From Torpedo marmorata (lineage: Eukaryota): DNA of 64,000 bases. Below, in pieces: positions 4,487-60,432 of the stretch. Positions within the stretch are counted from its first letter, which is position 1, and each line of letters opens with the position of its first letter. The DNA is taken from the NCBI GenBank assembly GCA_977017645.1, contig OZ360231.1:47554001-47618000 (forward strand). Direction: 5' to 3'. Under the pieces are notes generated by a model that worked only from the letters and a program-made list of their open reading frames with translations, did not search any database and was not told where the DNA came from. The translations under genes were made by a program, and so were the position numbers.

Positions 4487-4727
4487 CAGAAGTTAGCCCT
4501 GTACGGCAAGATGCAGGAGTCCACGGAGAGCAACTCGCAGGGTAAAGAGAGCGAGAAGGAGCAGCCTCCCGAGGCAGAATACATCAGTTCCAGATGTGTG
4601 CTGCTCACATACTTCCAGGGGGACATAGGCGCCGTGGTGGATGAACACTTCAGCAGAGCTCTGAGCCACTTCAACGCAGAAAACCCGAGCTCAAAGACCC
4701 GCGCTTCGTCCAGCACGTTGTGGAAAG
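4487..4727 (+). CDS. VGLL3: VGLL3 coding exon 2 (Vg/Tondu TEAD-binding domain)
   Basis: Acceptor tcctcgtag, then QKLALYGKMQE..EAEYISSRCVLLTYFQGDIGAVVDEHFSRALS..TLWK (Tondu motif). Donor G|gtaggc, phase 1. Confidence 0.96.
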
Positions 4728-5945
4728 GTAGGCAACACGTCAAAGCAAAAACTTCAAATCCAATGAACAGTAATTGCTGAATATTTCTCTAAAGACTTTA
4801 AAAAAAAACATTTTCGGCTCTAGCTTACAGCGGTGGTAGTGGACACTAACATCCTGCAATGCTCAGCGCCAGAAATCTATTTAATAAAAATGGACGTTAT
4901 AATTCAACTTCAGGGGCAATGTTTGAGTATTTTATTCAAACCGATCCTATGTACGGTGGGGGTTATATGTTTTAGTTTAACTGATCACCATTTGACAAAT
5001 AGGGACAAAGTGGATGAAATGTCATTCCATCAATTCCTTAAATTGCAAAGATTAGTTTGCAAGTTTGCAAAGAGAGCGATAGGTAACCAGAACATTAATT
5101 ACTCCTGGCGGCATTTGGAAAGAGAATATATATTTTTCTTTGTTTCTGAAAAGGTTTTGTTTTACTCATTTCTAATTTAGTGTAGATATTTTCAGAGTTT
5201 TTCTGACTATAACTGTACTCTACAAATCTGACAAACATCAAGTCATGCTGAGATCTCTTACCCAGAAAGTCCCTTACCCGACTTAGCGACTGGGCCGTTC
5301 CATTTATTCACTGAGATCTTCGAGGCCAAGTAATTTTCACTCAACAGGTTACGTTATTGACGGAAACTGATTGTAACAAACGATTCTCTGTCTATTAGCT
5401 GCAGAGTCTTAATTCCGAGACGCAGCTCACAATCGCGAAATCAGACTGATTTAGTTTCAATAAAAGGGGTCTCGGAATAAGTTGTGTGCATCTCTGAGTT
5501 TGGAAGGGTTTACAGCGTGAAAATAAAGGTGGCGCAGTTGAACAAATCATAATTTGCAGAAAGCTACCAAACACTGTTTATCGACTTTGGATTTCAGACC
5601 TGAATGAAAGATAAAACGTTTTATTCCATCACTATCAATAGTTAACGCTGCATTTTTTTGAGAAATATATTCGCAGCAGTGGTGTCAACCATTGATAGAG
5701 ATGGGAGAGGAGATTTGAAGAGTTTTGAATCAACATTGATTCTGTTGATTACGTTATATCTATGAAAGAGTTTTACGGTGAGACGTTTATAAGAGTTTTA
5801 TGCAGCTTTAAGCCCCGTTTATTTTATTCACCCTTGTGCAGCGCTCTAATAAACGACTTACTGATTGTGCACTTCAGGATTCTGCAGTCACATGGCAACT
5901 CTTTTCACAGATATACCCAATTTCGAATTTCATGTTGTTTTTCAG

Positions 5946-6422
5946 AAGGATTGCCGGTTTCTACAAATCAGAAGAACAGCTTCCCTGCTTCTTTCTGGAG
6001 TAGCACGTATCAGGGCCCAACACCGCCCTGCCTGAGTGGGAGTCGTCCCGATTTCTCCGCAGCCGCCGCTGGTGTGTTTCATTCCCCTGATTCCATGGCT
6101 TGGCCTGGACACGGACTACACCAGCCAAGCGCTGCCCCACCAAACGCTGAGGCGTGGCCCTACACGTTGGCATCACAAGGGAGTTCCAGCTACCCACTGG
6201 TCCACGACGTTTACCCTCACGTTCACCACCCACATGCCCACGCCCACCATCATAATCCGCATCTCGACCCTCGTTATGGGTCATTGTTGGTGCCGTCGGT
6301 GAGGGCAGCGAGGATTGCGGCAGGACCAGGGGAGATCACAAAAACAGACGCCGCTGCTGCAGCTGCCGCTTGGACCGGAGCCTTTCATGGAACCCTAGAC
6401 GTGGCGCAGGGAGTAGACACAG
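5946..6422 (+). CDS. VGLL3: VGLL3 coding exon 3
   Basis: Acceptor gttttttcag. The peptide NSFPASFWSSTYQ..PPCLSGSRPDF..WPGHGLHQ..AWPYTLASQ..His-rich..RAARI..EITKT..AWTGAFHGTLD fits VGLL3 better than VGLL2. Donor G|gtgaga, phase 1. Confidence 0.95.
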
Positions 6423-6543
6423 GTGAGATTAATGTTTAGATCGATGGTTGCTGAATATATATGTCCTCGAAGTTTTTTTTTATAACATTGCTTGCATTAG
6501 TTACCTATTTCAAATATTATGTTTCAGCAAAGCCACGATAGAA

Positions 6544-25300: not shown

Positions 25301-26796
25301 AGTAACTTGCGCCTTCTCTTGTTTCATTTCAGATTTCCAACAGCTGCAGCATTTTTTTCCAGCTTATGCATATGGACACAGGCTTCAACCTCTGAGGCAC
25401 AAACGTTTCACTGGATATTGGAATTTAATGTAAATATTACAATGTGTTCCCTGCCCGTTTGAACTCTGGATTCTTATTTCAAGGCCTGCTTGAAAATTTC
25501 TTTGGATGTGGTGTTGGCTGTTTCCCAGTGAGAAATGAACATTGTTCTCGCTGCATTTGGACAACATGGATGACAACGGAGAGTGAGGCTTGTCAGGCCT
25601 GCAAATCTGCACTGACTAACTCACTTACACTGGCAGAAAAAAGGGTACATTCTAAATAAAATTTATTCAACACATTCATCAAAAGATATTTGTCAAACAA
25701 TAGTTTTTCAAAAATACTTTTCTATAAAAATGCAAGAACATCTACAAAAGCATTCTCCATTGATTTCTAAATGACATCCAAATAGTTGTGACAAGAGATG
25801 GGCACATCCTCCTCTCCTTAAACATGGTGGGTGAGAATGGGGTGCATGGTGACATTATGGCAATATTACCTTGAATAGCACACGATGAATGTATATCACT
25901 GAATCATAGGTTTAAGACATACTATCACAGACCTGCTTCATTTGTAAACTTACTCAGTTCAGAATGATCCAACAGTAGCAATTAGCAGTTGTAGCATGAA
26001 ATCAATGCTCTGAGTCCCAGAGTAATATTTCTGCACCAAAAACCTAATACATCTAGTTAAAACCTGCTCTACCTTAATCATAAACGATTCCAGATCTATC
26101 TGCACTATTGAAATATCACTTTTTATCTTGCACTAACTATAACTGAGAATATTTATCCTTTTATATTTATTATCTCTTTCTGTCTTGGCATATTGTGGTG
26201 ATTTAATTTATATTAATGTAGTTGGTGCATCTTGTGTACCTGTGTGGCTACAGCAAGTGAGAATTTTGGTTCGTCTTTACATTGTACTTATATATGTGAC
26301 AATAAACTCTTATCATCATCAGTTACTTTTCTTACATTCTACATCAGGAATCATTCTTAAACTTCTAGATTGTCAATTTCATTCATCAATCCAAAGAAAA
26401 GTTGCATGTGGAAAATCAGAAGGTCTTTTGGTAGTCAAAAGTTAAACTCAAAAAATCAGATAAAGCAGATTCCAATTTTATCAGATAGAGACTGGCTCCT
26501 CTAAGTTAGAAGCAGCTGTCAAGGCATTATTTCAAATAATACTGGCTTCTTCAATCTTCACATTTTACTGAGCTCTTTCATTCATTGACTGTAACATGGT
26601 ATCTGCAACGTTGAATTGTCTTCCTCGCTGCCACTTCTTTATTTTCTCTTCACTGCAATGCAAACATTGCAACACCACTTACACAAGGTTGGTATCGGGT
26701 ATTTTGGAATTTTGTTGGTCCCATTGCCTTTTCTAATTGCTGTGATCTAGTTGATGAGCATTTATTTCTGTGTAAACTATAAAGCCTATTGTCCTT

Positions 26797-27050
26797 TTTA
26801 AAAATTTAACATACGGCACAGTAACAGGCCATTTCGGCCCACGAGTCCGTGCCACCCAATTTACACCCAATTAACCTGCAACCCCCGGTACGTTTCGAAC
26901 GGTGGGAGGAAACCGGAGCCCCCGGGGAAAACCCACGCAGACACGGGGAGAACGTAGCAACTCCTTACAGATGGCGCGGGATTCGAACCCCGGTCCAGAT
27001 CGTTGGCGCTGTAAAGGCGTTGCGCTAACCGCTACGCCAACCATGCCGCC
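26797..27050 (-). mobile_element. tRNA-derived V-SINE (HE1-like) with CR1-type tail
   Basis: A box tggcgtagcggttag, B box ggttcgaatcc, V domain gcgtgggttttccccgg..tccggtttcctccca and tail gggccgaaatggcctgtt. Confidence 0.88.
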
Positions 27051-27144
27051 TAAATATGGTGCAACACCTACGGTTGGATTTTTAAAAAAAGAATCTGTTG
27101 CAATGCCCAGGATCATCTAAATCCTCCTCAATGCTTAAGTCAAA

Positions 27145-27364
27145 TTATTCATCTTCTGCATTTGTAACATAAGAATAATTGATAGCTTCCTCTTGCTGTG
27201 CACTGGAATCACTTCTCAATTTAAGTGAACTGATTTTTAGGCCATCACAGGGCAGTGGCATTACATGACGTAATGAAGTCCACTTCCATCGTCATTGGTC
27301 ACTGATGTCAGTCTTACACCAGTAGAAATGTCATCATCGTTTCTCTGCTTTTCACGTCCATCAC
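27145..27364 (-). pseudogene. ROS1-like: Damaged terminal coding exon of a ROS1-like receptor tyrosine kinase
   Basis: Frame A reads (G)DGREKQRNDDDISTGVRLTSVTNDDGSGLHYVM*, resembling ROS1 GEDGD..SDDIMPVALMETKNREGLNYMVL. After a 1-nt shift, frame B reads VMPLPCDG..EEAINYSYVTNAEDE*, resembling GLNYACLTH. The polypyrimidine tract ends in tg, not ag. Confidence 0.7.
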
Positions 27365-27498
27365 CAGGACACAAACAGAAGTTTATAAGACATGAAAATA
27401 GAATAAACAAACTAAAAGAATAAATTTTAAATCTGACATGAAAATAGAATAAACTAAAGTGCATGGCAGGCTATAAAAGAAACATCCAGGATAAATAG

Positions 27499-33323: not shown

Positions 33324-35444
33324 TCTCTTTTCCCCAGTATCCATGCTTAGTCTTGTAGATTCCAGGCAGACACCATCCATTTTAAGTGAAATTTATTTTG
33401 TTCCACTAATACAGGTAATTTTAATCTCATTGTTATCAATTTCTCTGCAAAGGGAATTTGCCCTTTTTGTTTAACCTGTCTTGGCTCTCATAATTTTACA
33501 TAGTTCCTTATAATACAACCCCACCTTAACCAAGCTCCTGTCCTGACAACATCCTCATTAATCTCTCCAACCTCTGTGGAGCCAACACCTCCTCCAGTCA
33601 TTATGAACTGAGAGGAAACAGTCCAGCTGTATCACAAGTGTACTGAAATTCACACGTCTCATAGTCTGTACCTTGATCACGAATGACAAGTAACCTGCTT
33701 GCCTTCTTACCTGTCACCTTATCCACATTTTCTGTTTTCTTCAGAGACACCTCTGCTGCTCTATTTCTTACTTCCCGATTGCTTATCGGGCACTCCCTTC
33801 CCCAAATCATTACCTCATGTTCCTCCAGACTTAGTGGCATTGGCTCTTTTTGTGACTGGAAATTTCTTCCGTGTTATTAATCACACTGATTTGTTGATAT
33901 CATCAGCAAATTTCTTAATCGATGGCCTCCATATTTAAATCTGAATCACTGACACATCCAATGAAAAATAATGTTCCTGGTGCTGTGCCCAGGGAAATCA
34001 AAACTCTGGTCACAACGTTCTGATTGACCATTCCCCTTGGCTTTTCCCCACTGAACCAATGTTTTGTCCACCTGGTCACCTTGGGCTTGTACTTTCCAAA
34101 ATCAATCTGCCTCAAGGCTCCCTTTCTACCGAACAGCAACCAGTAATGAATTAAAATCCAAGCATATAGCAAGCATTACTAATGTTCCAGTAAAATTTCT
34201 CCCATTATCATCTGGTTTGCTCCATCTCCATTACATTTATTCCTTATTCTTCCATTTACTTAGTCCCTTGGGTTCAAAGGTGATCTGTCTCCACTCCAGT
34301 ATTGTGGAATCTATGGTGACTGATGAGACTCACGTGGGACCTGCAGACTGCACCACAGGTGCTACTTGACAGGGCAGATGTTAATTCCTGATTGGAGCCC
34401 TCCCAGCATGTGGTAAAGTATTCCATAACACCACCTGCCCAAGGCTTGCTTTGGCTAAGTGCTTTCAAGTTGTTCCTTCTTTTTAAAGCAATTAAACAAC
34501 TTCAGGCTCATTTCTACACATACTCAGGAATGCTAGATTTAATTTCAATACATCCAAAGTATTCTATCAATACAGCTAGTTTATTTATAATATATTCTCC
34601 ACTGTTTTTTTATTTGGTTTTCAAACCCTCGAAGGCTTCTAGAAATGGAATATGAAACTCTAATTACACTGCATAATTTGAAACATTTCATCCATCCCAC
34701 CCCATCAGCTCATGTGTTCCTTCCCCTCCAAATCCTGTCTTCTCCCCATCCAACCCCTATGTTCTCCCCCCATTTCCCTTTCCTCGTACAGTTTAGGATC
34801 TGTGAGCACTTGCAAAAACAGTAATGAAAACACTACTCTCAGCCAAATAACTAAAATAGAAACATTACTTGCATTTTTCAAATAGTTCCTCTATTCATAA
34901 GAAAATATTAGGCATAGTGCATCACTTCTAGAGGCAATCGAACTGAATGCACAAATATAACATTACTTTTGCAACTCATGAATCACAAGGTTTTTACATC
35001 TGTTCAGCATGTCGTGCTCTTCAATCATTTGACTGTAGTTATGCCATGTGCTTCCAGAATTCACAATGAGATCACTGTCTTCTGGTGTGCACTGGTGGCA
35101 GTCTGTCAAAACTCTAGGTTTATTTTCACGAAAAAGTTTAAACAAAAGTGAAGGCCAAAATTCACAATATCTTTGCCATTCGTCAGCATTAATGTGAAAT
35201 GTTAAAGATGTAGGATCAAAGTACAATGATTTACTTATTTTGCAACTGGTTGTTCTGAAAGTGCTGTTGTCAGTGGCTTCAGTTTCAGATCTTGACAGAT
35301 CCCTGTTTCTAACAGACTTTTGCAGTCTCCATCTATTATTATTCTGAGTGTAATTTGATACCTTCTTCTAATTTAACATGGGTCCCTTCGAAAATGCACT
35401 TGGCTTGATAATAGGGGAAACCATTCATGTACCTCTGGAATCGA

Positions 35445-44125: not shown

Positions 44126-45918
44126 CGTTACTTCAGGGTCTACCTCACTGGCATATTGCTTGCAAGCATGAGCACAAACACACCACAAGCTTCTCAAAAT
44201 GTGGGCAATGGGACATTTGCCACAAGTGTGCTCGCGTGTGATACATACTAAACTGAAAGCAAATTCATCCCTGAACAATGAGCTTCGAGGGCTGATTCTT
44301 GATGTCAACACAATATGATAAGAGAAAGGTCAATGCAGATCTTGCAGGAATAACAAAGGGTCTAATTGTAATGTATACAACCAATGCAAGTGTGTATTCA
44401 ATGTAGGGGGACAAAGAGGCACGAGGATAGATTAAACAACTAACACTCAGTATCTGTCAAGTATTCCTTTACTACCATAAAAGTGAAAGTGTAATTAGAG
44501 AGGAGAGGAAGCATGTAAAAGAATTGAAAGGCTCAAAACTGAGGATGAGCATCACATAGTAAACACTGAATGACTAATTCCTCTAATCAACCATAAGGGA
44601 AGACATTAACAGTCCAGCCTTCTCAAATGCCTACACCCATGATATAACTGAACTTATTATAAACAAAATCAAAACATTGGGCGAGGGAATTGCATAACTG
44701 ACCAAACATCTCTCATGAGATGTGATCTGGTTTGGTGTTGAAGGGTTGTGGACCAGTAAAGGTCTTCCAGGACAAGTTACTTCTGTCCTCTCCTCACATC
44801 TTTCAACATGCAGTGTCACTCAATATTAAACAATAAAGGATACTGTGATAAATATTTTACTCTTCCAACTCCACGCTAATTGGAACATCCCAATTGATAG
44901 ACCCTCTGACTGAACATACACTATCTTATTTATTAAGCAGTCATCAACTTCAAAGTACTTGAGTTATTTGATTCTGTTTATGGCCTGAAATTAGTTTCAT
45001 CTGCACACTTAAAAAGCTAGAAGTAAACATCTTAAAAGACACGGCATGGTTTTTTTTACACAAAATGACAAACAATAAATTGTTATCCAAGGATCTTTGC
45101 TCACACTAAAACAGGTATTTTAGTAAGTAATTATAATGGTGTGTTTTACGATATTTATAAAGATTGGAAAGATCAAAAACATATCCAGGCACGTTCATAA
45201 AACAATCCCAGTTAGGAAGTATATCTGTAGTACGACTTTTACTGTGAACAAATAAAATTGATAAAAAAACAGCTAAAACAGAACCTTAGGAATACATTCC
45301 ATGATGCAATGACCCAAGACCACTATTATTTCTAATAAAATGTATCTATACTATAGCTCCACAGTGGTCTAACATGTGCAATAGTTAACAGTGGGATGTC
45401 CAATGTACCAAGAATGACAAAGGGCAGTGTGGGAATAAAATTCTTGACAGTAGCCACTACACTGATGTAAAAGTCACCCTGTCATCCTCCTAAACACCTG
45501 TCAATCACTGGAACACAGTAACCACGACACCCTGCTGTAAAAAGGCAAGTACTCTGCTGGCTGCTGATCTTCATATAAAACCCTCACTGCAGGCGCACGG
45601 TGGACTGGCTACCTGGGAATGTGAGCGCGAGGGCAGACTTGTCCATTGGCCTCAACTTAAACAAACAACTGGTGAATGTTCCCTTAAAAGATGCAGTCTG
45701 GGCTCAATTCAATTGGATATTAGAACAATAGAATTAACATCCAATTTGTATCAATTCCCCTTAGGCCAGGGACAGTCATGTTGTCTTCCATCTATGCTGC
45801 TAAGAAACACAAAGCTGTTATTCTAACACTTCAGAAGGACAAAGCTATATTCTCCCACTTTTTCCTATTTAGGGATTACAATACCATCAGTTATTCAGCC
45901 AAAGCATGGCACATTTAC

Positions 45919-46103
45919 CTTCAAATGCTTGATTGACAATACCCTGGGAGATGTCACCATTCCTGCAGCCATCATTGTAGCGCACAAGAGCATTCTGACT
46001 GCCTTGGGGGCTGCTTTTCAGGTGTTCCAGGCAGTTTTCAATGTATTGGAATGATGTCCTCTTGTGGGGTTCACTTGTCCAACACTTGAGCATCAGCTGG
46101 TGG
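45919..46103 (-). CDS. ROS1-like: Penultimate exon of a ROS1-like receptor tyrosine kinase (end of kinase domain); functional status unknown
   Basis: Acceptor tttccttgtttctaaaacag (phase 2). Encodes HQLMLKCWTSEPHKRTSFQYIENCLEHLK..GIVNQAFE; compare human ROS1 WNLMTQCWAQEPDQRPTFHRIQDQL..GVINESFEG. Donor G|gtaaat, phase 1. Confidence 0.8.
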
Positions 46104-53560: not shown

Positions 53561-54502
53561 AACTGAAAATGCTAAAATTGCAAAGGATTTACAAAAATAA
53601 CTCATCTGTCTTCATAAATCCTCAATAACCACTCAAAGAAGTCTAGTAATTTAAATATATTTATTAGTATACATACAGTATATACACATAAATATATAAT
53701 GTATCGGCTCCCAAAGTCCAACTGCATTGTCCTGGCCAAATCCTTCCCTTAGTCAGCAGGACATAATCTTTTATCTCAAAGCCATCTGTGTAAATTTGCA
53801 TGGCACAAGCTGGCAACTAGATATATCTACAAATCACAATCAAAGTTCAAAAGTAATTTGTTAACTTTGAGATATTTTGGAACATTCTAAAGTCATGAAA
53901 TATGCGTGAGTGTTTACAAGTTTCTTTTCCTTTACACATCTGTTGCAGCTTGACTAAAGCCTTTACTATCCAGTCTGTTGGCATGGTTAAACAATTATTC
54001 CACTGCTGAGACATGGCGTTGGCTTCCTTAAGTAAAATAACAACTCGAACTTACATTCAGACTTTAACATGGTAAAATATCCCTAGAGCACGAGTATTCC
54101 ACAGGGCTGTGGTTTGTTGTTGGCTGCATAGCTTTCCTCAACAAAATTGGCAACACACTGAGCCACTGAACAAAGATCTTCAGCAGGATGAGGGAGAAGT
54201 CTTTGATTTCAGTAAAAGTAACACCTACAATTGTTTGCAGCAGATTCTGCAACAACAGATCATTGATGAGCTCCTGCCGAACAACCCTGCTCTGCAGAAG
54301 AGCAGAGTCTCAACATTACTTAAAAAAAGTCTGATCATTATCACATTCCTTCATGTGGGTGCTGGCCAGGCGCAACTTTCAACAGTGACTACTGTTCAAA
54401 AGCTGCGGAATATTTGTCTTAAATGAGATGTGAAAGGCAGTGCAAGTTTTTCTCATTTATGGCTTTTAGACATAAGTACCGAGAATTTCCCGTCATCAAT
54501 AT

Positions 54503-55410
54503 TGTTATGGACCATGACTGACCATTTGGACTGCGGACGGTCAGCAGGAAGGATGAAGTCTTTTGGAGTATACACTGGGGCCAGGTACTGAAAGAGTTAA
54601 CTTCCCCAGGACTTGGTGTACCCAGACAGAGAGAGAGACATTGTTGCACTTTTGGTGTACCCAGACAGAGAGAGACCACACAGAGAGAGAGACAGACTGT
54701 GGACAAGATACATTTGTTGCACTTTTGCAAAGGCAGGTGCAGATCTCTGCACAAAGTACACAGTTGTGAATTGCAAAGGCTAGAGAACACAGCCAAATCC
54801 AGGCTTGTGCATAGTCAGAGAAAAGACTGGCAGAATAGCACATGGCCTCCTGTCTCAGAGAAATTCTGAGTTAAAAGCAACTTCTGTGGAGAACAGGCGT
54901 GAGATCAGCGAGACTAGCTGTGAGATTCAAGCACACGCCTAAATCAGTGGTATACTGATCTGAACTCGAAATCCTTATGAACACACAAGAAGGGGACGTC
55001 ATCAGAGAAGAAAAACAAGTATTTGTAAGCATAAACAGTCATTGTCTCTCTCCAACGTTCATTCAGAAGTACTTCTACCAGACACAGAGCTGAATTTGAA
55101 GCCTGAACTTAGAGAGTGAATTTTGTGGACTATTATTTTCTTTTTTGACTGACTTGTTTTTATGACTGACCTGGGGTTTTTGGGGAAAGTTTTTCCATTT
55201 TTACATAAGGGTTGGGCACAGACTGTAATGGTCTGGGCTTTACACACACACACACACACACACCTTTTAGATAAGAATAGTGTTTATAGACGTTTATAGT
55301 GGGGTTAATTGTTGTGAAATTATATGTTTACTTGTCTTTAATAAATAGTAATTTCAATTTTACCCCTTTTGCATTGCGTCTTCTGTCGTTGCTGGTTTGA
55401 ATTTGTAACA
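54503..55410 (+). repeat. 5' LTR
   Basis: tgttatggac...tttgtaaca, near-identical to 59531-60432. Confidence 0.95.
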
Positions 55411-55413
55411 AAT

Positions 55414-55432
55414 TGGGGGCTCGTCCAAGGAT
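55414..55432 (+). promoter_or_regulatory. Primer binding site (tRNA-Pro type)
   Basis: tgggggctcgtcc sits 3 nt after the 5' LTR and matches the first 13 nt of the canonical tRNA-Pro PBS TGGGGGCTCGTCCGGGAT. Confidence 0.85.
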
Positions 55433-55544
55433 TTGAATCAAAATCCATCTTGGTAATTGAAGGAATCCCAGTTTGGTTTAAGGCATTCCTTTTGTAAAGC
55501 TAATTAAAAGCTAGTGTGTGTGTGTTAAAAAAAACCCAGCAACA

Positions 55545-58500
55545 ATGGATGTAGAACATTTTTTGGAATCACCTGAACCTGATATTTTTAAAAAGGCGAA
55601 AAAGCAACAGTTAGTGGCTATAGCAACAAAGCTGGGCATTGCTTCTGTAAAAGCATCTATGAAAAAGGCAGAGATTGGGAGAAAAATTGTCAAATACTAT
55701 ATAAAAGAAAAAAAATTTGAGGAGAGCATGTTAGAGCAGTTTCCCAAGGGTAAACCTTCTGAAAACATACAATTGGAAATAAAGAAATTGGAATTGGAAC
55801 AAAAGAAATTGGAGGCAGACAGGGAACAAAAGAATAGGGAATTGGTACAAAGGAAATTAGAATTGGAGGTAGCCAGGGGACAGAAGAGATTAGACTTAGA
55901 GAACGAGGAGAAAAATAGGATATATATGCTGGAAAAGATAAAGTTGGAAAATGAGAGGAGACAAGAAGAGCGCCAAGATCAAATTCGTCATCCTGCTGAG
56001 GGGTTTTTGGCTAGTAAAGAAGTTAGGTTGGTTCCTCCATTTGAGGAGGCAGAAATAGATAAGTACTTCCAACATTTTGAGAAGGTGGCTGTGAAATTAA
56101 AATGGCCACAAGACCAATGGTCTCTTATGTCATAAAGTTTAATAAAAGGAAAAGCTCAGCAAGCTTATTCTACTCTTACCACGGAGCAAGCTGCTGATTA
56201 TGAAACGGTGAAGAAGGCTATACTCCAGGCTTATGAGTTAGTTCCAGAGGCTTATAGACAGGTTTAGAAATTTAAAAAGATCAGCAACCCAATATTATAC
56301 AGAGTTTGCCTATGAAAAGGTTGTGTGTTTTGACCGGTGGTGCACATCTAAGGCAGTAAACAATGATTACAATCAATTGAGAGAATTGATAATAATCGAG
56401 GAGATAAAAAGGTGTGTTCCTGAGGATATTAAGGTATACTTAAATGAAAAGGAGGTGAAAACTTGGCAAGATTCAGCTAAATTAGCAGATGAATATGCTT
56501 TAACCCACAAGCCTAAGTGGACGTCAGGTAGAATTTTCCAAAAGGTCACGGTGGATAATCAGAAGCAAGTGGAAAGTAAAATTGGAAGTGGTGTTAAGGA
56601 AAGGGATGAAGGAAAGTGGAAAAGGGAAAACAATTCGGGTCCCATTTGCCACTACTGTAGGAAGGCTGGTCATATGCTAGCAAGCTGTCCAGTGTTGAAA
56701 AAGAAGAGAGAAAAGGATGCAACACCTAATGCTTGTATTCAGAGTGAGAAGATGCATAACACCCAGGAAGGAGATAAATTTACTGACAAAGTTAAAGATG
56801 TATTTAAACCTTTTGTGACTGATGGTTTTGTTTCAGTTAAGGCAGGATCAAAACAAGTTCCAGTGAAAATCTTGCGAGATACTAGAGCTGCTCAGTCACT
56901 TGTGTTAGATAGTGTCTTGGAATTTTGTGAAGCTACTGACACCGGTGACATAAATTTAATTAAAGGAATTGGTGGTGAGGTTGAGTCCATTCCTTTGCAC
57001 AAAATAGTATTGGACTCAGACTTAGTGGAAGGACCAGTTATAATAGGAGTGAGATCAGAGTTGCCAGTAGAAGGAGTTTCACTATTGTTAGGCAATGACT
57101 TGGCCAAGGGTAAAGTAGTTCCTGCTGTGCGAATGACCACTAAGCCAGTCATTGATAAGTCAGAGAAAGACTATGATATTTATCCGGCATGTGCCATAAC
57201 CAGGGCCATGTCTAAGAAAAATGTCACTGTAGAGAAGGCAGTGGAAAATAACTTGGTAAAAGAAAAAGACAGTGATAATCAAGAAAACCTGGAAAAGGTT
57301 GAGCAATCTCCTATGTTACACCCATCCACTGATAAGACACCTAAAGGCACAGATTTGTCACTATCCCGACAGGAGTTAATAGCAAGACAAAAGGACGATC
57401 CTGATCTTGCTGAGGTGAGGGATAAGGTTCCCTCTGAAGAGGAGATTAAAAAGGTGCCAGTAGGTTATTATGAAAAAGATGGGGTGTTGATGAGAAAGTG
57501 GAGACCATGTGATGTTCCTGCCAATGAAGAATGGGCAGTAGTGCAGCACGTTGTGATCCCTAAAGTATATAGGGATGCAATAATAACTTTGGCTCATAGT
57601 ACACACTTAGGTGGTCACCTTGGGGTGAAGAAAGCTATACGGAAGATAATGAAACAATTTTATTGGCCCAGTTTAAGAAGGGAGGTTGTAAGCTTTTGCC
57701 GGGCCTGTCACACTTGTCAGGTGGTCGGTAAACCTAATCAGGGTTCCCCGGTGGCACCCTTGCAACCTATCCCTGCATTTAGTGAGCCTTTCTCGAGAGT
57801 AATTGTGGATTGTGTTGGCCCATTGCCCAAAACCAAAGTGGGGAATGAGTATTTGTTAACAATTATGTGTGCAGCCACCAGATTTCCAGAGGCCATTCCT
57901 CTGAGAAACATAAAAGCAAAGTCAATTGTAAAGGCTATGGTAAAGTTTTTCACCTTGGTAGGTTTGCCAAGGGAAATTCAATCAGATCAGGGCAGTACTT
58001 TCATGTCAGGCGTTTTCCAACAAGTGGTTGATGGACTAGGAGTTAAACAGATTGTATCCTCTGCGTACCATCCAGAAAGTCAAAGGGCCTTGGAGAGGTT
58101 CCATTCGACTTTGAAAACCATGATTAGAACCTATTGTTGTGAGAAGGAAAAGGATTGGGATGAGGGGGTTCATTTGTTGTTATTTGCAGCGAGGGAGTCT
58201 GTCCAAGACTCACTTGGTTTTAGTCCATTTGAGTTAGTTTTTGGCCATGAGGTAAGAGGTCCTTTAAAATTATTAAAAGAACAGTGGATTAATCGTGATG
58301 TGCATTTAAATCTGTTAGATTATGTTTCCAAATTTAAGGATCGATTGCATAGGGCTTGTGAGATGGCAAAGGAGAATTTAAAGGCCACTCAACGGAGAAT
58401 GAAGGTTTGGTATGATCGAAAGGCGAAGATGAGAACTTTTAAACCTGGTGAGAACGTATTAGTTCTGTTTCCCATCCATTCAAATCATCTTAGAGCTAGA

Positions 58501-59397
58501 TTTTCAGGACCCTATAGAGTTAAGTCAAAAATTAATGATGTCACCTATGTCATAGAAACACCTAATCGCAGACGAGACACACAGGTCTGTCATGTGAATA
58601 TGATTAAGCCGTATTTTGAACAGGTGCCTCAAAAAGGGGCTGAACATTTACCAGAGATGCTGGTTATTGACAGGGGTAAGGAGGAGATAGATAGAACCAG
58701 TTTCAGAGAGGGTCATGGGACTGTTAATTCTCTGAATTATGTTGTAGGACAGGGGAAGTTGGCGCCAGTAGAGGCAAAGGTTGTGACTATTTCCGAGTTC
58801 CCTGTTCCAACTGGTAAGAAAACTCTGAGGAGGTTCCTGGGAATGATTGGCTACTACCACAAGTTCTGTAAAAACTTTGCTGATCTTGTGCTCCCTCTCA
58901 CAAATTTGCTTAGAAAGAAAGAAAAATTTGTATGGTCAACAGGTTGTCAGGAAGCATTTGTCAAATTGAAAGCCATGTTATGCCACCAACCTGTGCTTAA
59001 GTCACCTAATTTAGAACAGCCGTTTTCTTTAGCCGTGGATGCCAGCGATGAAGCTGTGGGTGCGGTGCTGTTACAGAAGAAGAACGAAGAGGACATTGAC
59101 CATCCGGTATCCTACTTCTCGAAGAAGTTCAATGATCATCAAAGGAATTATTCAACTATAGAAAAAGAGTTGTTGGCTCTTGTGTTGGCTCTACAACACT
59201 TTGATGTGTATATCTGTACAGCTCAAAAACCACTCATAGTGTATACTGACCATAATCCATTGGTTTTTCTTTGTAAAATGAAAAATAAGAATCGACGGTT
59301 GTTGAATTGGAGTCTAATTTTGCAAGAATATAATTTGGTAATCACTCATATAAAAGGGAAAGATAATGTAATTGCTGATTGTCTTTCTAGTTGTTAA
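55545..59397 (+). pseudogene. Disrupted gag-pol of the Gmr1-like element
   Basis: Gag has a stop at 56133-56135 and a frameshift near 56262. Then come the CCHC knuckle CHYCRKAGHMLASC; protease LRDTRAAQSL (DTG changed to DTR); integrase HHCC, VDCVGP/SDQG/ERF and GPY; and RNase H VDASD/EKELLA/TDHNPL/ADCLS. There is no YxDD motif. Confidence 0.9.
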
Positions 59398-59530
59398 ACT
59401 TTATCAATGAAAATAGTTCATATTTTGTATTTGTGGATCAACATTGTAGATTTTGTTTATATTCTTATATTTATATTTACTTTCCTAAATTTTGTTCTTG
59501 CAGACCAAAATTTCCTTTGTGGGTGGGAGG

Positions 59531-60432
59531 TGTTATGGACCATGACTGACCATTTGGACTGCGGACAGTCAGCAGAAAGGATGACGTCTTTTGGAGTATA
59601 CACTGGGGCCAGGTACTGAAAGAGTTAACTTCCCCAGGACTTGGTGTACCCAGACAGAGAGAGAGACATTGTTGCACTTTTGGTGTACCCAGACAGAGAG
59701 AGACCACAGAGAGAGAGAGACAGACTGTGGACAAGATACATTTGTTGCACTTTTGCAAAGGCAGGTGCAGATCTCTGCACAAAGTACGCAGTTGTGAATT
59801 GCAAAGGCTAGAGAACACAGCCAAATCCAGGCTTGTGCATAGTCAGAGAAAAGACTGGCAGAATAGCACATGGCCTCCTGTCTCAGAGAAATTCTGAGTT
59901 AAAAGCAACTTCTGTGGAGAACAGGTGTGAGATCAGCGAGACTAGCTGTGAGATTCAAGCACACGCCTAAATCAGTGGTATACTGATCTGAACTCGAAAT
60001 CCTTATGAACACACAAGAAGGGGACGTCATCAGAGAAGAAAAACAAGTATTTGTAAGCATAAACAGTCATTGTCTCTCTCCAACGTTCATTCAGAAGTAC
60101 TTCTACCAGACACAGAGCTGAATTTGAAGCCTGAACTTAGAGAGTGAATTTTGTGGACTGTATTATTTTCTTTTTTGACTGACTTGTTTTTATGACTGAC
60201 CTGGGGTTTTTGGGGAAAGTTTTTCCATTTTTACATAAGGGTTGGGCACAGACTGTAATGGTCTGGGCTTTACACACACACACACCTTTTAGATAAGAAT
60301 AGTGTTTATAGACGTTTATAGTGGGGTTAATTGTTGTGAAATTATATGTTTACTTGTCTTTAATAAATAGTAATTTCAATTTTACCCCTTTTGCATTGCG
60401 TCTTCTGTCGTTGCTGGTTTGAATTTGTAACA
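59531..60432 (+). repeat. 3' LTR
   Basis: Preceded by the PPT-like gggtgggagg and followed by the TSD atat. Confidence 0.95.

Follow-up and report, generated by a model that had tools for sequence, protein, structure and literature searches.

The last exon of the receptor tyrosine kinase gene in the window (the whole 64,000-nucleotide stretch analysed, G000:C43:47,554,001–47,618,000, within a 6.22-Gb assembly) is best read as the end of a decaying unitary pseudogene that was likely dead well before its splice acceptor broke; we put the probability of this reading at about 0.94. The gene is not ROS1, as initially annotated, but a second vertebrate ROS paralog, for which 'ROS2' is our own label. 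The pseudogene extends over at least G000:C43:47,580,481–47,793,047. Its ROS-type ectodomain, TM and kinase exons are colinear with residues 319–2187 of the paddlefish protein P0077 over 193 kb, and the colinear match to a full-length ROS-like protein runs from x = 239,047 to 45,920, x being the window-extended coordinate (C43 position = 47,554,000 + x). Introns are present at the native locus, and the gene is not a retrocopy. The last exon is single copy in a whole-assembly search, and no intact ROS2 copy was found elsewhere in the assembly. Unitary pseudogenes, of which GULO in primates is an example, are likewise single-copy genes dead at their own locus, with old lesions shared and young ones private; the present case differs in that ROS1 and ROS2, the family's two paralogs, are both dead in one genome.

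Table 1. Features of the ROS2 pseudogene, its neighbour and the ROS1 remnants (window coordinates unless a contig is given)
Feature	Position	Strand	Remarks
Last exon of ROS2 pseudogene, true coding span	26481..27364	-	884 nt including SINE-like insert; from basking-shark and whale-shark tail alignment
Dead acceptor TG, A of AG lost	27365..27366	-	Common to organism A; AG intact in organism B
TAA after GLHYVM	27261..27263	-	TAT in organisms A and B; adjoins 1-nt frameshift relative to sharks
Premature TAA after NYSYVTNAEDE	27145..27147	-	Lys in whale shark; no A/B difference among listed rows
SINE-like insertion in coding part of last exon	26805..27077	-	tRNA-type B box, T/A-rich flanking duplication; approximate boundaries
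Candidate alternative terminal exon	34963..35102	-	In-frame phase-1 AG, 46 codons, YxxM motif
Penultimate exon, end of kinase C-lobe	45919..46103	-	Splice sites intact, RPSF>RTSF, frame open
VGLL3-type neighbour, Vg_Tdu exon and His-rich exon	4487..6436	+	Convergent with ROS2 pseudogene; synteny marker
ROS1 FN3 exon remnant (L045/L048 pair)	G000:C25:18,786,189-18,786,382		Two stops, one frameshift; 61.5% to chimaera ROS1, 42% to shark ROS2
ROS1 kinase exon remnant (L045/L048 pair)	G000:C25:18,818,824-18,818,892		87% to chimaera ROS1 vs 60% to shark ROS2

Lesions of the last exon

The lesions first reported for this exon are borne out on the minus strand, where TG stands in place of AG at the acceptor and the frame runs through GLHYVM into an early TAA (Table 1). 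The second frame, ...EEAINYSYVTNAEDE followed by TAA, also has the sequence described, but its stop is premature, because shark tails run on (~180 residues beyond the second Tyr motif) and homology to them picks up again downstream, at 26802–26689 and 26555–26484. The true stop is a TGA at 26483–26481, after LEEPVSI, and additional stops lie at 26565 and 26532. The match to the basking-shark tail (tblastn E 4.5e-11) cannot be put down to chance, and near 27262 the window is one base short relative to sharks. Rescue of the exon by a cryptic acceptor was considered and rejected: seven AGs lie in 27411–27282, and the sole in-frame one (before 27301) ends at the 27261 stop. As initially annotated, the preceding exon keeps both its AG and its GT splice sites, and read-through from it gives GKCAMLWLNN and then a TGA ending at 45887. 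Its RTSF was read correctly as well; because shark orthologs have RPSF, only P>T is derived.

SHP-1/SHP-2 binding has been linked to Y2274 and Y2334 of ROS1. In human ROS1 (P0019), two tail motifs 60 residues apart match these tyrosines, as do the two tail Tyr motifs of ROS2. Their earlier description as phosphosites agrees with the accessible text of PMC3597588, which names both as autophosphorylation sites.

Organisms A and B are relatives whose sequencing runs covered the exons compared. Two of four runs covered the last exon, with one contig each and a depth of 9–22 in the relatives; the comparison took in two exons, with one contig per locus. Comparison with relatives, as the initial annotation proposed, gave a divided answer at the acceptor, A having the same TG and B an AG provided by an extra base. 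A differs from the window at 10 of 462 letters and B at 30 of 450, where the listed difference rows omit two of A's and four of B's. Each also carries its own deletion, of 2 nt at 27281 in A, which restores the frame by coincidence and destroys the GLHY motif, and of 7 nt at 27250 in B, which remains out of frame. Three lineages with three indel states within 35 nt are what drift would be expected to look like.

In the other exon compared, an FN3 exon, the contig of A covers the full 340 letters and that of B the first 160. Neither contig has a gap over the two frameshifts, which therefore predate the split from B, and B has its own CGA>TGA stop plus an apparent insertion. Since B keeps AG yet has both FN3 frameshifts, the acceptor loss is secondary and came after gene death. 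The order of lesions is FN3 and tail frameshifts (window, A and B), then acceptor loss (window and A), then the TAA at 27261 (window only); this private TAA, compared only with relatives' reads, may be allelic or erroneous.

Divergence between the window and B is ~7% (the 30/450 letters above and 12/160). Evolutionary rates in elasmobranchs are slow, and from this and the divergence ROS2 probably died tens of millions of years ago. Of the initial reading as a 'young unitary pseudogene', the second word stands, the gene being single copy with many upstream lesions, and the first is unsupported because two frameshifts are common to a ~7% diverged relative. It is accordingly very improbable that the dead acceptor or the tail frameshift was the founding lesion of a young pseudogene. 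Such a history would suit kinase exons still 83% identical to sharks (254/307), and no tested lesion is older than the tail frameshift and the TAA at 27145; against it stand the presence in B of AG together with both FN3 frameshifts, and lesions older than the ~7% split.

Lesions and constraint along the gene

Upstream of the window, seven in-exon stops fall in four ectodomain exons (x ~208.5k, 202.7k, 167.7k and 147.7k), a stop at x = 206826 being left out of the count as it precedes the exon start. ROS2 frameshifts are found at x = 142381, 139820, 139768 and 132877, and a TAG is formed across the FN3 exon junction 140640/139944, where sharks have Gln. The juxtamembrane exon is split by a SINE-like insert (x 135592–135337), and a LINE 3' end sits where the acceptor of the WSFG exon belongs; the 5' junction of this LINE was sought at the WSFG exon and not found. 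Retroelement insertions upstream of the window number two in ROS2. Kinase splice lesions comprise a GG acceptor at x = 127984 and an AT donor at x = 117991, followed by TGA, whereas a GC donor at x = 121575 was left uncounted because it is possibly ancestral. Several of all the lesions lie within the kinase. An in-frame cryptic AG could bypass the kinase-exon-1 frameshift at 132877; no open frame leads from the ectodomain through the kinase. Within the window, an LTR retrotransposon (~54,500–59,900; terminal repeats nearly identical, SCAN/integrase/RNase H frame of 1051 aa), presumably Gypsy-like, sits in the intron above the penultimate exon.

The ROS2 copy shows relaxed selection. Otherwise invariant kinase columns are changed at 13 of 109 positions, the Arg ahead of WM and the Pro in RPSF among them, and the same count in five intact controls gave 1/116, 0/92 and, three times, 0/115, with 5/120 in goldfish ROS1. 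In relative-rate comparisons, the window copy had 39 changes vs 10 in basking shark (307 columns, p 4e-5) and 25 vs 10 in whale shark (243 columns, p 0.017). The dN/dS-type check proposed in the initial annotation pointed the same way: substitutions between the window and A/B comprise 21 nonsynonymous and 9 synonymous among the 30 classified, on which this part of the result rests, with one organism B substitution outside the segments dropped and 27261 counted once. At an expected neutral share of 0.75, neutrality is not rejected (p 0.53) and an omega of 0.2 is (p 2e-4); the FN3 exon alone, with 9 nonsynonymous to 5 synonymous, gives a weak p of 0.048 against omega 0.2.

Any ROS2 transcript would be expected to stop within the ectodomain and would probably undergo nonsense-mediated decay, so that no membrane kinase, tailed or tailless, would be made and the last exon would drift neutrally. 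The initial annotation had offered instead a receptor that lost its docking tail. In a fuller form of this reading, a functional kinase would have its SH2-docking tail lost or swapped, with either intron read-through or the candidate alternative terminal exon (Table 1) supplying its end. The penultimate exon is indeed intact, and the VAIK-type catalytic Lys, HRD and DFG can still be read. The candidate exon, which lies in the last intron, is a conserved, single-copy, in-frame open frame; it shares 41 of its 46 residues with the end of the catshark ROS-like model P0003, the stop is the same, and identity to that model falls off just upstream of the in-frame phase-1 AG. Its YxxM is a PI3K-type motif. 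A Pfam search of the exon gave no match, and a search for a longer homolog found none, which is weak evidence. A tailless receptor is nevertheless refuted by the damage to the ectodomain and kinase exons: ahead of the kinase and inside it there are stops, frameshifts, dead splice sites and insertions, some of them common to the relatives, and invariant residues are lost. We give this reading a very low probability. That the dead acceptor and frameshift are assembly or consensus errors is scarcely credible, and refuted for the shared lesions, for although the TAA at 27261 is seen in the window alone and the reads compared come from relatives, independent runs show TG in A, no frame-restoring base at the window's position in A or B, and the FN3 frameshifts in both.

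Identity and neighbourhood of the paralog

The penultimate exon matches six of seven candidates. Identity is highest to the ROS-like models, 85% in basking shark and 82% in whale shark, with further matches in catshark, chimaera, a Logan ORF and the marsupial Dromiciops. In a kinase tree of 35 rows, built without the window row, a ROS-like clade (100/97) stands apart from ROS1 (99/99). A quick tree of 26 rows, without bootstrap, included the window kinase with X between exons and placed it among elasmobranch ROS-like proteins (SH-aLRT 97); here the ROS-like clade of 10 rows (SH-aLRT 97) is sister to ROS1 (96), and the end branch of the window kinase is 0.15 vs 0.01–0.03 for sharks. The ROS1 identity given in the initial annotation does not hold, as the trees place the gene in the sister ROS-like clade and its synteny is VGLL3-type/POU1F1. 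A ROS1 ortholog was also rejected on the grounds that the kinase is not grouped with vertebrate ROS1 and that the VGLL2-type site on C25 has separate ROS1 remnants.

Like ROS1/c-Ros, ROS2 has a long FN3 ectodomain, a TM segment and a kinase, the same phase-1 junction before the tail, and a convergent arrangement with a VGLL gene. It differs in forming a separate clade, in its VGLL3-type and POU1F1 neighbours, in a longer shark tail, and in being a pseudogene here; the window kinase is 60% identical to human ROS1 (165/275) and 66% to chimaera ROS1, compared with 80–83% to chimaera and shark ROS2. The orthologs are models of Cetorhinus, Rhincodon, Mustelus, Pristiophorus, Polyodon, Acipenser, Huso, Dromiciops, Trichosurus and Callorhinchus (A0A4W3JUD3), which databases name 'proto-oncogene tyrosine-protein kinase ROS-like', the Callorhinchus model being under a generic name. 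Nine ROS-like rows group with the window gene in a single clade, Huso lying outside the tree in a 90% cluster shared with Polyodon. In these models the kinases are open and conserved, whereas the window copy is broken throughout. ROS2 protein models come from chimaera, sharks, sturgeons, paddlefish and marsupials; both ROS1 and ROS2 are present in chimaera and paddlefish, and the sturgeon and paddlefish ROS2 models are full length (2317–2393 aa). The marsupial models P0006 and P0013 have conserved kinases and are only 500–514 aa long, and may reflect a gene that is shortened, mis-annotated or in decay. The Logan ORF (P0005, 75% to the penultimate exon) reads RMSF and has a 4-residue deletion and many radical changes; it may represent this pseudogene in a species more distantly related, with the P>T step in common.

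Literature searches in which few subscription papers were covered found no description of a further ROS paralog in vertebrates or of its loss, and ROS2 is apparently undescribed. One survey, in its accessible text, gives Ros1 as a single-gene subfamily, missing in Neoteleostei (PMC4898815). The kdr-like, axl-like, ddr2-like, ephA4-like and styk1-like RTK ohnologs of the same text are likewise extra paralogs retained by some vertebrate lineages and absent from human, and differ from the present case in that no ROS paralog figures among them (PMC4898815).

Four Vg_Tdu loci were found in the assembly. Attempts to name the VGLL genes via PDB and Atlas resolved them to family only; the available text of PMC5665465 describes a His tract as unique to VGLL3. 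A POU1F1 exon, 50/52 identical to Pit-1, lies 138 kb from the window VGLL. ROS1 lies beside VGLL2 in the order RFX6-VGLL2-ROS1. On C25 the order is RFX exon, VGLL, ROS1 remnants, with the RFX exon, which we take to be RFX6, 0.74 Mb from a VGLL at C25:18.96 Mb that looks like VGLL2. LCCL genes lie at a distance of 1.6 Mb from the window and, on C41, of 0.24 Mb from the VGLL, and none was found near the C25 VGLL; a DCBLD-type exon was sought in two genomic regions and not found. At C41:10.61 Mb (L043) there is a fourth VGLL1-3-type gene, and at C41:10.37 Mb (L070) an LCCL-domain (DCBLD-like) gene. This C41 block is likely a third paralogous block. The node uniting ROS1 and ROS2 has a support of 88, and ohnolog status therefore leans on synteny. 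The occurrence of both genes in chimaera and paddlefish, the four Vg_Tdu loci and the LCCL placements are consistent with a duplication that preceded the jawed-vertebrate split, and the two genes are probably ohnologs from an early vertebrate genome duplication.

ROS-type receptors in this genome

The true ROS1 is also decayed. Only remnants of two of its exons were found in 400 kb of N-free sequence beside the C25 VGLL2-type gene, convergent with it (Table 1). When the whole genome was searched with the catalytic exon of chimaera ROS1, the ROS2 exon (76%) came first and was followed by nothing but INSR/IGF1R-type exons; longer whole-genome queries under a stricter filter had the same outcome, with no intact ROS kinase exon. 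The next-best matches after ROS2 were INSR/IGF1R-type exons and exons that we take to be ROR-like and MuSK-like. These searches suggest an animal that likely lacks any ROS-type receptor.

An open NICOL exon, matching a solved protein, is present at G000:C1:281,689,916–281,690,014 (L115).

With moderate confidence, we propose that a second jawed-vertebrate ROS receptor (ROS2, a VGLL3-linked ohnolog) was kept in chimaera, sharks, sturgeons and marsupials, and that this elasmobranch lineage lost both ROS genes while keeping at least one intact NICOL co-ligand exon, which would make it a natural double knockout for ROS signalling in an internally fertilising vertebrate. Elasmobranchs are vertebrates that bear an epididymis. 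In mouse, Ros1 loss causes complete male infertility via failed epididymal differentiation, according to the accessible text of PMC11447831.

The last-exon lesion that was flagged is ordinary decay, and the interest lies in the ROS2 paralog and the likely loss of the ROS family. The shark, sturgeon and marsupial 'ROS-like' models are an annotation trap, not all of them being ROS1. If both paralogs are absent, a comparison with sharks in which ROS2 is kept could test the origin of lumicrine signalling, and sperm maturation would be possible without a ROS receptor in an epididymis-bearing vertebrate.
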